A stretch of 63,880 nucleotides of DNA, filler included, from Octopus bimaculoides (GCF_001194135.2; 6 parts of 5 records of this genome joined end to end with filler, not necessarily neighbours in it); one strand, 5' to 3'; numbered from the whole stretch's first letter, positions 13,688 through 56,465 are shown. Numbers and translations are program-made. Notes: generated from the letters alone by a model not told the origin.

Positions 13688-13756
13688 TTGCGGCTGAAGA
13701 TAGCTTTGTATTGTAAATTATACACTGATATAAAGCTTGAAACACGTGTACCGCAG
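13688..13756 (+). ncRNA. Minimal type I hammerhead ribozyme, intact
   Basis: Helix I TTGCGG/CCGCAG; core CTGAAGA 13694-13700; T.T then helix II AGCTTTGTAT/ATATAAAGCT; GAAA 13739-13742; palindromic helix III A-CACGTG-T; GUA cleavage site after 13750. Confidence 0.9.
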
Positions 13757-14399
13757 AACCCTTTGTATTTTTGTTGTTATTTTTGGGATTTACAATTTAT
13801 ATATATATATATATATATATATATATATAGGCTTCTTTCAGTTTTTTCTGTCAACCAAATCCACTCAAGGCTTTGGTTGACCCAAAGCTATAATAGAAGA
13901 CACTTGACCAAGATGCCACACTTTGGATTGAACATGAAACCATGTGGTTGGGAAGCAAACTTCTTACCACACAGCCATGCAAAATTGAAATAATCTAAGA
14001 CAGTTATAACTGCTAAAAAAAGTTTCAAATTGGCTGAAATGCATCTTGTCATAATTTTGTTCTATCTCTGTGTTTGAGTTAATTTCGCTAATAACCCTTC
14101 AGCCGTTCACTAATACAGTTGATTAAATCTGTTTCATTTGCATACTAATTCATCTTGGGGCGGGGAAAGTGCAGGGAATGATAGCTGAGTGTTTACCTTC
14201 GTTAATGCTAACAAGAAAGCATAGAAATGTTACTATGAATGGTTGCCAAATGAGTAGAAAGCATGGTGAGGAGAGACAGGGAGGCCCTACTCCAAGTAGA
14301 CCTAACAGAAAGACTGGTTGTAGAAGTTGACCCCTATATGGTTGAAAGTGCAATTATGCATAATGAAGGTTGGGAAAACAGCTGAACTGTCTAAGATAG

Positions 14400-14961
14400 A
14401 AATAATACATTTCTAAATCTCTTGGAATGATTTATGCAGTAGTGATACGATAAAGTAGTTGTATGCTGTCAACTTAATGTGACAGTCCCATGAAAGGAAT
14501 AATACTACTGTTGGTTAGACCTAGGAAGCTGCACTGCTTCCTGTCGGTCTTGACACATTTCCTGTGTCCTTATGTTTACAAGGGGGAGACAAGCACTGTC
14601 ACATTAAGTTGACAGAATACAACTACTTTATCACATCACTACTGCATAAATCTCTCTGAGAGATTTAGAAATGTATTATTTCTATTTTTGAAATCAGTGA
14701 ATGTGTTTCACTAGAATTATATGTTTACAAGAGCTTGACTGGCATCTCCAACTAGAAGGCCATTGCTACTCCAGACTGATGACGAACAAAGACTCAGAAA
14801 CTAGTCCCTGGATGGAGGTGCTTGTCTCCCCTTTGTAAACATAAGGACACAGGAATTGTGACAAGGCTGACAGGAAGCGGTGCTGCTTCCTAGGGCTAAA
14901 TAGCAGTAGTATTATTCCCTTCATGGGACTGTCACATTAAGTTGACGGCAAACAACTACTT
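14400..14961 (+). mobile_element. Non-autonomous Penelope-like/retrozyme-like insertion with nested inverted repeats and a hammerhead
   Basis: 12-bp direct repeat TGTCTAAGATAG at 14388-14399 and 14962-14973; internal layout A-B-A'-C-B'-a'; hammerhead in C; no substantial ORF. Confidence 0.75.
14770..14812 (+). ncRNA. Degenerate minimal hammerhead ribozyme
   Basis: TCCAGA-CTGATGA-CGAACAAAGACTCA-GAAA-CTAG-TC-CCTGGA; core intact, helix II decayed. Confidence 0.6.
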
Positions 14962-17217
14962 TGTCTAAGATAGTTGCTAAGATACTGAAAATGTCTGGCA
15001 ATGTAGGGCATGTACCATTCACTCACCAAGTCAGTCAAGTATTATGGAGAAGAGTCATCTTCAGTGCCTGAAGCAACAGAATTCCCATTACCACAAAGGT
15101 GAAGCAGATGCTCTGGACTGAAGCAACTACAGAATTATGAAATTGATGGATCAAGTTATGAAAGTAAGAGAGTTACAGCATAACTAATTAGAAAGAAAAT
15201 TAGCAGAGATAATAAGTACTGATATGGTTGCGTAGTTAAAAAAGCTTTCATTCTAATCATGTAGTCTTGGGTTCAGTTCCACTTCATAACACCTTGGGTA
15301 AGTGGATTTGACAGACAGAAACTGAAAGATGCTTGTCTTATATGTATGTGTATCTTTGCATGTAGTGGAGGTGTGAGACTTTGCTGTTAGGGTGTTGGAT
15401 TCATGATTGTAAGATTGTGGTTTCAATTCCTGGACTGGGTGACACATTGTGTTCTTGAGCAACACACTTTATTTCACGTTGCTCCAGTCCACTCATCTGG
15501 CAAAAATGACTAATACTGCAACAGATCAGCATCTCATCCAGGTGGGGGGACCGGGTTGTCTCAGAGTTAAGAACCTCAACCAGCCCCAACTGACAGTAAC
15601 AGGATACACATCAACTGCTTTGCTCTTAGTTCAGCACTGAAACTTTTCATTTATGTCAATAAATTTTCCATAAAACCCATTTCAGTCTTACTGATTTCTT
15701 GGCATTGTCAGTTTTATTATACATCACCATCTTCTGACATAATTGATCCTATGACAAACCGATACATTTTATTGACTATTTTATGACCAATTAGTGTTCT
15801 GTGTATCTCATTTCAATATTTTTTTACTTCTTTATGACATACATTGTTGGTTCTGTGATCCATCTCAGTCTTATTGATATTGTCTTTATATTATAACCCC
15901 TCCCTCCAAACCTACACTGTTGCTATATACGTAAACATCTTGACCACATCCAAATAAAACCCCCCTGACTGATTGGTATAAAGTTATGTGCCAGCTCCTT
16001 GTTGTGCTGTCTTCTCTCTTTCTCTCTCTCTCTCTTCCCATTCCTCTAGCAATCTCTTTTCCTCAGCACTGGCTGGTCTTCTGCAACCCCTATATGGACT
16101 CTTATAATTTACTCATCTCTTCTAATTATTCTTGTGCATCCCCCACTCTTCAACTTCTAGACTCCACACTAAGAGGGAGAGTTTATAGACTTTCTTCTTT
16201 ACCAAAATTACTTTTACCAAATTTGTGGAATTACTCTCTTCTGCCGGTGGCACGTTAGAAAACATTCTAACGAGGTCGTTGCCAGTGCTACTGGACTGGC
16301 TCCTGTGTAGGTGGCATGTAAAAAACACTATTTTGAGCGTGGCCGTTACCAGTACCACGTAAAAAGCACCCACTACACTCTCGGAGTGTTTGGCGTTAGG
16401 AAGAGCATCCAGCTGTAGAAACTCTGTCAGATTAGATTGGAGCCTGGTGCAGCCATCCGGTTCACCAGTCCTCAGTCAAATCGTCCAACCCATGCTAGCA
16501 TGGAAAGCGAATGTTATACGATGATGATGATGTTTGCTGTCCTCTCATAAAAAAAAAAAACAATTTGCTGTTTGCATTACATCCAACTCCACATTATCAA
16601 TACTAGGTAATTCTCCCTAAAAAATGTTTACCATTCCACCAGGTTCCCCATAGACATACATGTCAAGTGTTGAAGTACATTTTGCTGGTTCAAACTAACA
16701 AAACCACCAAATTTGATAATGTCCCTTCTGTTACCCTTCAAGTAATATGCCCCTATCCTCTCCAACCTTTTTAGTCCTTCCACAGATATTTTCTGATTGG
16801 TGGAAACGTGCTACAGTGTGTTCCATTTCCAGAAAGAGTAACCACTCTGACCATGCCAACTTCTACATCATTTCACTCACTTTCAACATCTCAGAGATAG
16901 GGAACAATTATTAACAACCTTATGTAAAAACATGTATCCATCTCCATCCTTAATGACCACCAGTAAGGGTTTTTGTAATGCCTGGTCTACTGTTTTGTCT
17001 CCAACACAAATCTCTAAGAAAATTTATCGTTATGGGATCTGTCAGCAAAACAGTAGGTGGTATGTATTCTATTATTAGCTGTGCCTGGTTCAGGCATTTA
17101 ACTCTGAGATGACCAAGTCAAACTGAACGTAAAGAATAAAAAATCTTGGATTATTAATAAGCAGCCAGTTACTAGCTAGTGTTGATTTTAAATTCTCCCA
17201 TGAGCATGTATTTGTAC

Positions 17218-17540
17218 ATCATCATCATCTTCATTTAACGTCCGCTTTCCATGCTAGCATGGGTTGGACGATTTGCCTGGGGAATGACGAATCAGATGGC
17301 TGCACCAGGCTCGAATCTGATTTGGCAGAGTTTCTACAGCTGGATGCCCTTCCTAACGCCAACCATTCCGAGAGTGTAGTGGGTGCTTTTTATGTGCCAC
17401 CGACACGAGAGCTCGTCAGGCAGTATTGGCAACGACCATGCTCGAATGGTGCTTTTTACGTACCTCTGGCATAGGACCAGTCAGGTGGCACTGACAGCAA
17501 CCACGCTCGAATGGTGCTTTTTACATGCCACCGGCACATA
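17218..17540 (-). mobile_element. RTE-type 3'-tail retroposon with (GAT)n tail and internal tandem units
   Basis: Minus strand ...aggaagggcatccagctgtagaaac...catgctagcatggaaagcggacgttaaatga.. with a GAT-repeat tail. Other copies at 12945-13192, 16235-16532(+), 20880-21070, 26105-26300, 26760-27030. Confidence 0.75.
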
Positions 17541-55123: not shown

Positions 55124-55163
55124 GGTATTGTAAATTTTAAAGCTTGAAACACGTGTACCGCGG
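55124..55163 (+). ncRNA. 3' half of a hammerhead, same family as 13688
   Basis: GGTATTGTAAATTTTAAAGCTT-GAAA-CACGTG-TA-CCGCGG is nearly identical to part of 13707-13756; the 5' half is replaced by (TA)n and a gap. Confidence 0.6.
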
Positions 55164-56036
55164 AATCCTTTGTGTTCTGTTTTCATTTTACGTTTTTACG
55201 TTTTAATATATATATATATATATATATATATATATATATATACGCACACAGACAGACAGACAAACAGGCAGGTAGACAGATATGCACGCATGCATGCATA
55301 CATACATACATACATACAGACAGACAGATAGACAGATCCATATACAGATACATCATATTTGCACACATCTCTGCTTAAATGTAATAAACGTAAATATTTA
55401 TTTACTGTCAAATTCCAGATTCGCTACCAATAAATAGATCTTAATTTTCAACCATTTTATAGATTAGTTCGGTTATAAAGAAGACCTTCAATTCAAATTA
55501 CACAGTACTCGTTGAAAATATATATTTACATCAGCACGCATAAACCCATAAAATGTTAAATAAATTCCTTATACAGGAAGTCTAATATAAACCATAATAA
55601 ACGCCAAACCTCACAGTAAACTGGCCAGCCGAGCACTTCTCTGTTATTGAGACTAGAAAATTCGGTTTTGTAGATCCAATAGATGTACTAGCGCGTATGG
55701 TTGATGGTTGTATACGAAAGAGTGACAGGGACTAGGAAAGAGAAGCAGGTGATCAATATTCCCTATAAATATTATATAAAATTTATTTATGAGCGTAGAA
55801 ATTGATATTAATCAATTATAACCAGTGGTCTAGCATATTAAAAAAATCCGAAGATTAAAATCATATTACATACAAAAATAAGAGGGATGACCAGAAAAAG
55901 TGGACTCCTATATGCTAGAAATAGATGCCGAATCATCTAACCACGAAAAATATGTTCTCAGTAAACATTTAGCGACGCAACAGACTGTAAAATGGCAAGA
56001 CAAATGAAAAAATACTAAATTAAAAAAACGATTAAC

Positions 56037-56101
56037 CTATGTACCATGGTTTCACCTATTAAAATTTACATAAATAAATATCTGCAGGATCATCAGCGTA
56101 G
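56037..56101 (-). ncRNA. Minimal type I hammerhead ribozyme
   Basis: Minus strand: CTACG-CTGATGA-T CCTG...TAGG T-GAAA-CCATGG-TA-CATAG. The inverted copy at 56409-56465 has CAGG and CGTAG, which restore perfect helices II and I. Confidence 0.8.
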
Positions 56102-56408
56102 TCTGTCGATTTATAAAATATAATTTCCAGAACTAGACACAAGACGTCCACCCGAAAGAGAGCACGTGTAGAGTTCTACAAATTACATTCAGTGTATCCT
56201 TTCAAATGTCTTTAATCTGGCGCGCTAAGTCCAGAAATAACTCTGCAGTTAATAAATTTTTGCAGCTAATCTAATGGTTTGAGAACATCATTATTTAAAA
56301 TCTATTAATAAGGGTAGAAATTGATATTAATCAATTAAAACAAGTGGTCTAGAATATTAAAAAAATCCGAAGATTAAAATTATATTACATACAAAAATAT
56401 TTTATTTT

Positions 56409-56465
56409 ATGATCCTGCAGATATTTACTTATGTAAATTTTAACAGGTGAAATTATGGTACGTAG
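56409..56465 (+). ncRNA. 5'-truncated inverted copy of the 56037-56101 hammerhead
   Basis: ATGA TCCTG...CAGGT GAAA TTATGG TA CGTAG; CTG and the 5' helix I strand are missing. Confidence 0.6.

Follow-up and report, generated by a model that had tools for sequence, protein, structure and literature searches.

Thousands of hammerhead motifs have been reported per metazoan genome, most of them single and truncated, and such hammerheads were of low activity, dimers included (Cervera and de la Pena, PMC4209133). Those carried by Penelope-like elements (PLEs) cleave poorly in vitro and commonly hold extra bases between A9 and G10.1 (PMC4209133), and PLE insertions have been described as an inverted 5'-truncated copy together with a partial tandem (Craig et al., 2021; PMC8557442). 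According to the same paper, one group of PLEs, the Naiads, is without a canonical hammerhead; nine of its consensi are labelled "HHR_core" and eight "HHR_half_core", labels that go unexplained. A recent preprint derives retrozymes from the pseudo long terminal repeats (pLTRs) of PLEs and takes two consecutive units, each with a complete hammerhead, as its working definition of an active retrozyme; its text names no mollusc (bioRxiv 10.64898/2026.07.22.740005). Among the non-circular permutations, type-SGC and type-CSG hammerheads were recovered from metatranscriptomes and metagenomes, with one bacterial GCS candidate as the sole exception overall and neither SGC nor CSG seen in any known organism's genome, and CUGANGA was assumed to be inseparable from the helix II strand, the A9-G10.1 link being considered necessary (Eckert et al., 2023; PMC10085705). 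Penelope-like elements are among the repeats annotated for Octopus vulgaris in a 2026 paper, in whose main text the words "ribozyme" and "hammerhead" occur zero times. Here we analysed 63,880 nt of the Octopus bimaculoides genome (GCF_001194135.2; six parts of five records joined end to end with filler), hereafter the window, and found six type I hammerhead motifs together with two homologous sites of a rearranged hammerhead, designated family F. With a probability of roughly 0.7, all eight are the 3' ends of PLEs or of their non-coding derivatives and are predicted to cut the element RNA, the type I motifs as dimers through a palindromic helix III and the rearranged motif as a single molecule.

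The window was scanned with a core-only descriptor (CUGANGA...GAAA-C(N)G-UH), and 100 local dinucleotide shuffles served as control. Six matches were found, with the first base of CUGANGA at 13694 (+), 14776 (+), 36746 (+), 38875 (-), 53464 (+) and 56096 (-), against a mean of 0.35 and a maximum of 3 in shuffled windows. Pairing in helix I, which the descriptor did not require, was present at four to six of six positions in all six cores (shuffle mean 0.04), and a perfect helix III palindrome in five of them (shuffle mean 0.01); none of the 100 shuffles equalled the counts for cores, helix I or palindromes. A stricter descriptor gave three matches (13694, 38875 and 53464) versus a mean of 0.08 and a maximum of 1 in 300 shuffles. 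The six intact type I cores are real and not products of chance, as the original prediction had held: their frequency is far above that in dinucleotide-shuffled sequence. All six were on its list of motifs, from which the rearranged family at 5336 (-) and 56974 (-) was missing. The blocks follow the order C-G-S (CUGANGA, GAAA, NUH) in every type I motif. Helices I and II are intact around the cores at 13694, 38875 and 53464, and at least one mismatch is present at 14776, 36746 and 56096. Helix III had been described as palindromic in most motifs, too small to fold alone but able to pair in a dimer. The latter part was borne out, since none of the helix III segments folds singly and all of them self-pair, with predicted energies of -4.6 to -14.9 kcal/mol as self-duplexes. 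The former part is right for the five perfect palindromes but not for 38875, where 8/8 positions pair only with two G-U pairs, and the description of the hammerheads as minimal fails for this same motif, which has a helix II of 15 bp.

The hammerhead of family A (13686-13758, +) has a helix I of 8 bp, a long helix II with U-U at its base and an 8-nt palindrome as helix III; its cut is predicted after 13750, and the element ends at (TA)n 48 nt further on. A supposed second hammerhead copy at 55124-55205 (+) turned out to be a fragment of family A that lies between (TA)n tracts, is truncated at its 5' end and lacks CUGANGA; it is not a ribozyme. Family B forms a 562-bp insertion (14400-14961, +), in which an inverted 5'-truncated copy with a one-sided tail (about 14400-14596) precedes 1.1 forward-oriented units of 333 nt. 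Identical 12-mers on the left (14388-14399) and on the right (14962-14973) make up a target-site duplication of 12 bp. The core of this copy (14776-14806) has a damaged helix II with 2/4 pairs, while the second family B copy (36701-36947, +; core 36746-36776), which ends at (TA)n, keeps 3/4 pairs and is 77% identical to the first over 249 columns. The sequence into which B was inserted (14230-14399 and 14962-15230, +) resembles, across the duplication, a decayed RTE-type reverse transcriptase (RT) piece, presumably an old one; Pfam found nothing relevant there, and a word-index search right of the insertion gave 0 matches. Hammerhead C (38791-38882, -) combines a 7-bp helix I, including a G-U, with the 15-bp helix II and with a helix III that is not a perfect palindrome and forms either 2 bp with a 4-nt loop or an 8-bp dimer; the cut is predicted after 38798, and (TA)n follows 192 nt downstream. 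Element D (53415-53677, +), a distant relative of B, has its core at 53464-53496 with C-A at the base of helix II and ends at a microsatellite. Upstream of D there is a decayed coding-like stretch (53073-53400, +), resembling by eye an RTE C-terminus or GIY-YIG. Family E is a composite (55771-56598, -) with a 110-nt direct repeat (55771-55880 and 56290-56399) at a period of 519 nt, a hammerhead core at 56096-56042 on the minus strand, and an inverted 5'-truncated copy (56409-56598) that has lost the beginning of the core and continues into (TA)n.

Two decayed motifs had been proposed in addition; both exist, but as descriptor matches they are not above chance. The possible type I motif at 21749-21791 (+; core 21755) has two core changes, and the class with two mismatches, of which the window holds two matches, was equalled in 22 of 100 shuffles. 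The class with one mismatch contributed three new sites, against a shuffle mean of 0.77 and a maximum of 3. A possible minimal motif at 50945-51077 (+; core 50952) carries U4C, a weak helix I and a T-rich tail to (TA)n, the tail being weakly similar to family A (z 5.5, low complexity). Apart from these, a (TA)n-flanked element at 49745-50080 contains a degenerate core-like word with 6-bp helix I-like pairing, and no GAAA block was found in it.

Relatedness of the motifs was assessed by pairwise alignment with the cores masked, using 200 shuffles for each of 36 pairs. The two B copies and D are homologous (z 15.9 and 8.7, 0/200 shuffles each), and D is identical to the 14776 copy at 104 of 141 aligned bases. 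The only pairs reaching 0/200 shuffles were B-B, B-D twice, and the low-complexity tail shared by A and 50952. Judged from these alignments, the six type I cores fall into four unrelated lineages; the families are distinct, as had been claimed, and their number is four instead of at least five because B and D are homologous.

At loci B and E a partial tandem is accompanied by an inverted 5'-truncated copy, a plan not seen at A, C, D and F. (TA)n lies within 210 nt downstream of nine of the 12 motif sites, which as related copies are in part not fully independent, against a background of 0.122 for random positions; a bias towards (TA)n targets is a trait of the PLE groups Naiad, Hydra and Neptune. 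U-U or C-A replaces G10.1-C11.1 at the base of helix II in A, B, D and E, and both replacements have precedents in the PLE motif table in the supplement of PMC8557442 (File S2). We read the type I set as PLEs or their derivatives because of the inverted 5'-truncated and partial-tandem inserts, the 12-bp target duplication and the 3' ends bounded by (TA)n. This insertion anatomy agrees with the link to PLEs and retrozymes made in the original prediction, while no copy is an active retrozyme by the working definition given above, and the proposed population, mostly without open reading frames (ORFs), cannot be told from the 5'-truncated ends of coding elements. Such a type I set is the ordinary state of many invertebrate genomes. 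It is possible, though we would not expect it, that the type I families are free-standing non-LTR retrozymes, with tandem arrays and small circular RNAs, and not the ends of coding PLEs. The unit periods of 333 nt (B) and 519 nt (E), with circularly permuted ends, are within the size range of retrozymes (PMC7229834; bioRxiv 10.64898/2026.07.22.740005), and neither Pfam nor HMMER found an ORF remnant; yet no locus in the window has two consecutive units each bearing a complete hammerhead, and inverted 5'-truncated copies are a PLE signature (PMC8557442). As the 2026 preprint makes retrozymes derivatives of PLE pLTRs, the two explanations largely merge.

The rearranged motif surfaced in a relaxed scan, just outside the range covered by the original prediction. 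Its copy at 5336 (-) lies in a 673-bp element (5149-5821, -), which is ORF-less here and has (TA)n at both ends. Every hammerhead core base is present, in the non-circular order GUC triplet/cleavage site, GAAA, CUGAUGA. A scan of all six permutations typed the site as SGC, with a helix I of 7 bp, a helix III of 3 bp plus A-U and a helix II of 3 bp; non-circular matches appeared in 8/1000 shuffles at the observed level and in 134/1000 at the loosest. In the plain SGC register, helix II has three pairs only, two of them being G-U or A-U after a bulge. The strand before GAAA has a partner on the upstream side of the cleavage site, with which it makes six Watson-Crick pairs, and the strand after CUGAUGA pairs further upstream still (helix z, 5 bp, plus 2 after a bulge), with a hairpin, P0, in between. 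Plain SGC was rejected since helix II pairs better with the upstream strand. Two other readings, one as a type II permutation and one as a pair of half cores from tandem type I motifs, were rejected as well, there being no NUH after GAAA and the helix III partner lying upstream.

The layout that fits is a split-type permuted hammerhead (5322-5444, -) in the order z, P0, a, b, cleavage site, a'-GAAA, b', CUGAUGA, z'. Strand z occupies 5442-5438, hairpin P0 5437-5403, helix II strand a 5402-5397 and b 5396-5392. A helix III strand (5383-5380) is followed by the predicted cut between 5379 and 5378 and by a helix I strand (5378-5373(72)); then come helix II strand a' (5369-5364), GAAA (5363-5360), the other helix III strand (5359-5357), b' (5347-5343), the second helix I strand (5342(43)-5337), CUGAUGA (5336-5330) and z' (5329-5325), all on the minus strand. 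The register of helix b (5396 with 5343) was read from the sequence, and the scan gave b = 5. Helix I has 6-7 bp, and helix III includes A15.1-U16.1. A descriptor of the split layout matched once in the window, and it matched 89/2000 shuffles in a loose, 18/2237 in a moderate and 1/2237 in the version as observed. The second copy (56806-57012, -) has its 5' truncation at (TA)n, about 4 nt past the predicted cut; it keeps the GAAA and CUGAUGA blocks, and z, P0, a, b and the cleavage site are gone. A rearranged hammerhead structure is, in our judgement, very probably present in F, and this motif probably self-cleaves.

Family F was also sought in sequencing reads, where one DNA run and three RNA runs were aligned to 5236-5815, that is to family F alone, at 80% likeness. 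Aligned were 1930 DNA contigs and 1009, 937 and 685 RNA reads in the three runs; the family is high-copy and transcribed. Most RNA reads were less than 90% alike and hence come from other F copies. Depth drops toward the 5' end, as for 3'-anchored retroposed copies, with divergence contributing. The loose-end consensus of all three RNA runs has the cleavage-site block adjoining the GAAA block. Two changes keep pairs: one turns G-C into A-U in P0 (5435/5405), the other U-A into C-G at the distal end of z (partner of 5322). For each, the two sides were taken from separate tables and not from linked reads. Joints of the go-back kind were few, with two reads each, and tandem DNA would yield the same. 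For 14000-15300, the region of the B insertion, a search of sequencing runs listed none of RNA. Viral and metagenome contigs gave 0 matches to the F motif, which is expected for animal repeats and is no evidence.

The Naiads, whose ORF combines an N-terminal GIY-YIG, a CxC linker and a C-terminal RT, offered the closest comparison. The last 450-600 nt of 31 of the 54 Naiad consensi in File S5 of PMC8557442 were read by eye, with names taken from the file order and with a choice biased toward the labelled ones. Non-circularly permuted hammerheads were read in 17 of the 31 3' ends, namely six CSG, three SGC and eight of the split layout, and a type I motif in none. The CSG forms belong to four nematode species and a spider; their helices I, II and III have 5-6, 4-5 and 5-11 bp, and most of them an extra helix of 9-16 bp. 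The SGC forms are from a horseshoe crab, a spider (with a decayed core) and an ostracod (with a long insert). In the horseshoe crab (Limulus) motif the reverse complement of its own CUGACGA stands just before GAAA, which may give an inactive fold or an antisense core. The split layout was seen in a coral, a hydrozoan, a box jelly, a ctenophore, an ostracod, two octopuses and a bobtail squid, with helices z, II, b, III and I of 8, 6, 10, 12 and 6 bp in the coral and a helix I of 2 bp only in the ctenophore. By label, seven of eight "half-core", five of nine "core" and five of 14 unlabelled consensi had a motif, so that 12 of the 17 labelled consensi read as non-circular hammerheads. In the remaining 14 ends, including all six from bivalves, no motif was read, some of the ends being incomplete or the motif possibly lying further upstream; the bivalve ends, without hammerhead cores, have other GC-rich motifs in common.

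Within the split group all helices vary in sequence and the cores and the NUH triplet are constant, with covariation that looks clear by eye across the eight consensi. Counting F, G stands at 10.1 in 9/9 and C at 11.1 in 8/9. No pairing of a helix II strand after A9 was seen by eye in the consensi Amil, 4_Dst, 2_Movir and 3_Chem. If their ends are joined, the CSG, SGC and split forms are one cyclic order, the split form being opened at A9/G10.1. A break at this place is plausible, if unproven, because extra A9/G10.1 bases are common in PLE hammerheads and because hammerheads retain some activity when helix II is shortened to one pair or a linker (PMC544870). A run of 14 nt across helix I and the core is common to F and the two Octopus Naiad consensi, and F has the Naiad traits of a non-canonical core near the 3' end and a (TA)n target, from all of which it appears to be a Naiad-type element. 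Exact F words are absent from the Naiad supplement (PMC8557442), so F is not Naiad_Ovul itself. We lean slightly towards the view that Naiads of nematodes, chelicerates, ostracods, cnidarians, a ctenophore and cephalopods carry active non-circular hammerheads, and that one group of these, F included, has a topology that is none of the six proposed permutations, the chain being open at A9/G10.1 and an extra helix and a hairpin standing at the catalytic junction. No publication linking Naiads to permuted hammerheads was found in a search that left the subscription literature mostly outside its coverage, and such a link is quite probably absent from print.

Several results weigh against the motifs being PLE-borne ribozymes. 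No hammerhead model of Rfam 15 matched at E<=10 within 13500-15000, 38608-39100 and 53073-53677, where four of the six type I motifs lie; Rfam recognised no motif in four stretches searched singly, and no hammerhead was among the 150 of 220 matches listed for the whole window. Damage is present in most of the type I copies. Upstream of A, C and D, neither an RT nor a GIY-YIG remnant was detected (Pfam; HMMER on one frame upstream of D, 0 matches), Pfam gave nothing relevant on the flanks of A, B, C and D, and reading by eye revealed no such remnant on those of B, E and F; 5' truncation would remove the ORF with these domains. As to F, the thresholds of the strict split descriptor were set after the match had been seen, the loosest version being the one that matches 89/2000 shuffles, and helix III has only 4 bp. 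The minimum-energy fold, from a program without pseudoknots, gives z and P0 and otherwise a non-hammerhead hairpin of the GAAA-side and core strands. The consensus of two of the three RNA runs breaks one helix I pair, and none of the three shows a pile of read ends at the predicted cut, a weak test with unstranded and fragmented libraries. In an anole PLE, hammerhead cleavage was unneeded in vitro, and no RNA-seq ends were reported at the site (PMC11167929).

Some of these results would suit a motif that no longer cuts, i.e., a conserved structure of hammerhead ancestry, kept in F and the Naiads for 3' recognition or priming by the RT of the element. The missing pile of read ends fits, as do the separation of A9 from G10.1, whose linkage Eckert et al. 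assumed to be necessary (PMC10085705), the one consensus with a 2-bp helix I and the one with a decayed core, and the poor cleavage of PLE hammerheads in vitro (PMC4209133). We nevertheless consider this unlikely, as all the catalytic bases, together with the NUH triplet and the pair G10.1-C11.1, are retained in five phyla in which every helix changes its sequence, some activity survives a helix II cut down to one pair or a linker (PMC544870), and the 5' truncation of the second F copy lies about 4 nt from the predicted cut (one case).

It is very unlikely that the B and D hammerheads belong to the 3' untranslated region of an RTE-type long interspersed element (LINE), with D following the decayed end of an RTE ORF. 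The frames of 53073-53400 do resemble an RTE C-terminus by eye; Pfam names no relevant family, and HMMER has 0 matches for one frame. D can be aligned with B from no more than about 45 nt ahead of the core, and B was inserted into host sequence with its own target duplication and inverted copy. That the motifs are chance matches in AT-rich repetitive DNA is practically out of the question, since, for all that Rfam matches nothing, 0/100 and 0/300 shuffles attain the counts and the cores are kept in homologous copies, so that the idea holds solely for the two decayed sites and is already refuted for the six intact cores.

If the motifs are PLE ribozymes, as we favour, a PLE reverse transcriptase would have copied the RNAs from their 3' ends and left 5'-truncated, partly tandem and inverted inserts. 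Helix III of the type I motifs would form only when two copies meet, as in tandem pLTRs, and only multimeric transcripts would then be cut to unit length, following the model in PMC6765202. In F the putative ribozyme would have its core in the cyclic order of SGC/CSG with the chain opened between A9 and G10.1, where z and P0 sit; the fold of F and the Naiads would have to await synthesis of the last strand and would form without a partner RNA. Processing of PLE RNA would thus be dimer-gated in type I elements and monomer-competent in Naiads. The rearranged motif would explain why Naiads have been thought to be without hammerheads and gives a testable answer to the puzzle posed by Craig et al. 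(2021; PMC8557442). Should the split form cut, it would be one more natural hammerhead topology, present at high copy in animal genomes and missed by Rfam and by the descriptors now in use.

The rest of the window is AT-rich, with many (TA)n tracts, N gaps, repeats resembling short interspersed elements (SINEs) and LINE fragments. The SINE-like repeats include two abundant families, about 150 and 200 nt long, with at least seven and at least nine copies between 1821 and 63825. An intact single-exon reading frame at 8264-8689 (+) has an LSM domain (PF01423, E 1.8e-12), and we take it to be LSm10-like. A Pif1 helicase 2B domain fragment (PF21530) at 2865-3317 (-) is probably a Helitron remnant. 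Three adjacent 3' ends of RT-bearing non-LTR elements, with (TAA)n tracts between them, lie at 58000-61100 (+), and one more at 29696-29932 (-); these elements are presumably of the restriction-like endonuclease type, and those at 58000-61100 are linked to no hammerhead. At 53780-54900 (-) the sequence reads by eye as the decayed ORF1/AP-endonuclease 5' part of a LINE.

Compared with known systems, the type I set has in common with PLE hammerheads the type I order, the short palindromic helix III and dimer-dependent design, the many families per genome that are unrelated to each other, the predominance of single and truncated copies, and opposite-strand pairs a few hundred bases apart. It differs in showing no linked ORF in the window, in U-U or C-A at the base of helix II in A, B, D and E, and in the long helix II of C. 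With the metazoan non-LTR retrozymes (PMC7229834; bioRxiv 10.64898/2026.07.22.740005) it shares ORF-less units of 300-500 nt, a type I hammerhead and probable mobilisation by PLEs; unlike them, the window has inverted copies and no tandem of two complete ribozyme units. F shares with the type-SGC and type-CSG hammerheads (PMC10085705) the cyclic order of the cleavage site, GAAA and CUGANGA blocks and an extra helix (b) joining the helix I and helix II sides. In SGC and CSG the helix II strand comes directly after A9, whereas in F and the eight split Naiad consensi, all in animal retrotransposons, it stands apart on the upstream side and the A9/G10.1 junction is taken up by helix z and hairpin P0. 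The nearest relatives are the Naiads themselves (PMC8557442). F has in common with Naiad_Ovul and Naiad_Obim the (TA)n targets, the want of a canonical hammerhead, the "HHR_half_core" near the 3' end, an identical start of helix I and core and the same helix layout. It differs from the two in the sequences of helices II, III, b, z and P0, because of which we regard it as a separate family, and it has no Naiad ORF attached in the window.

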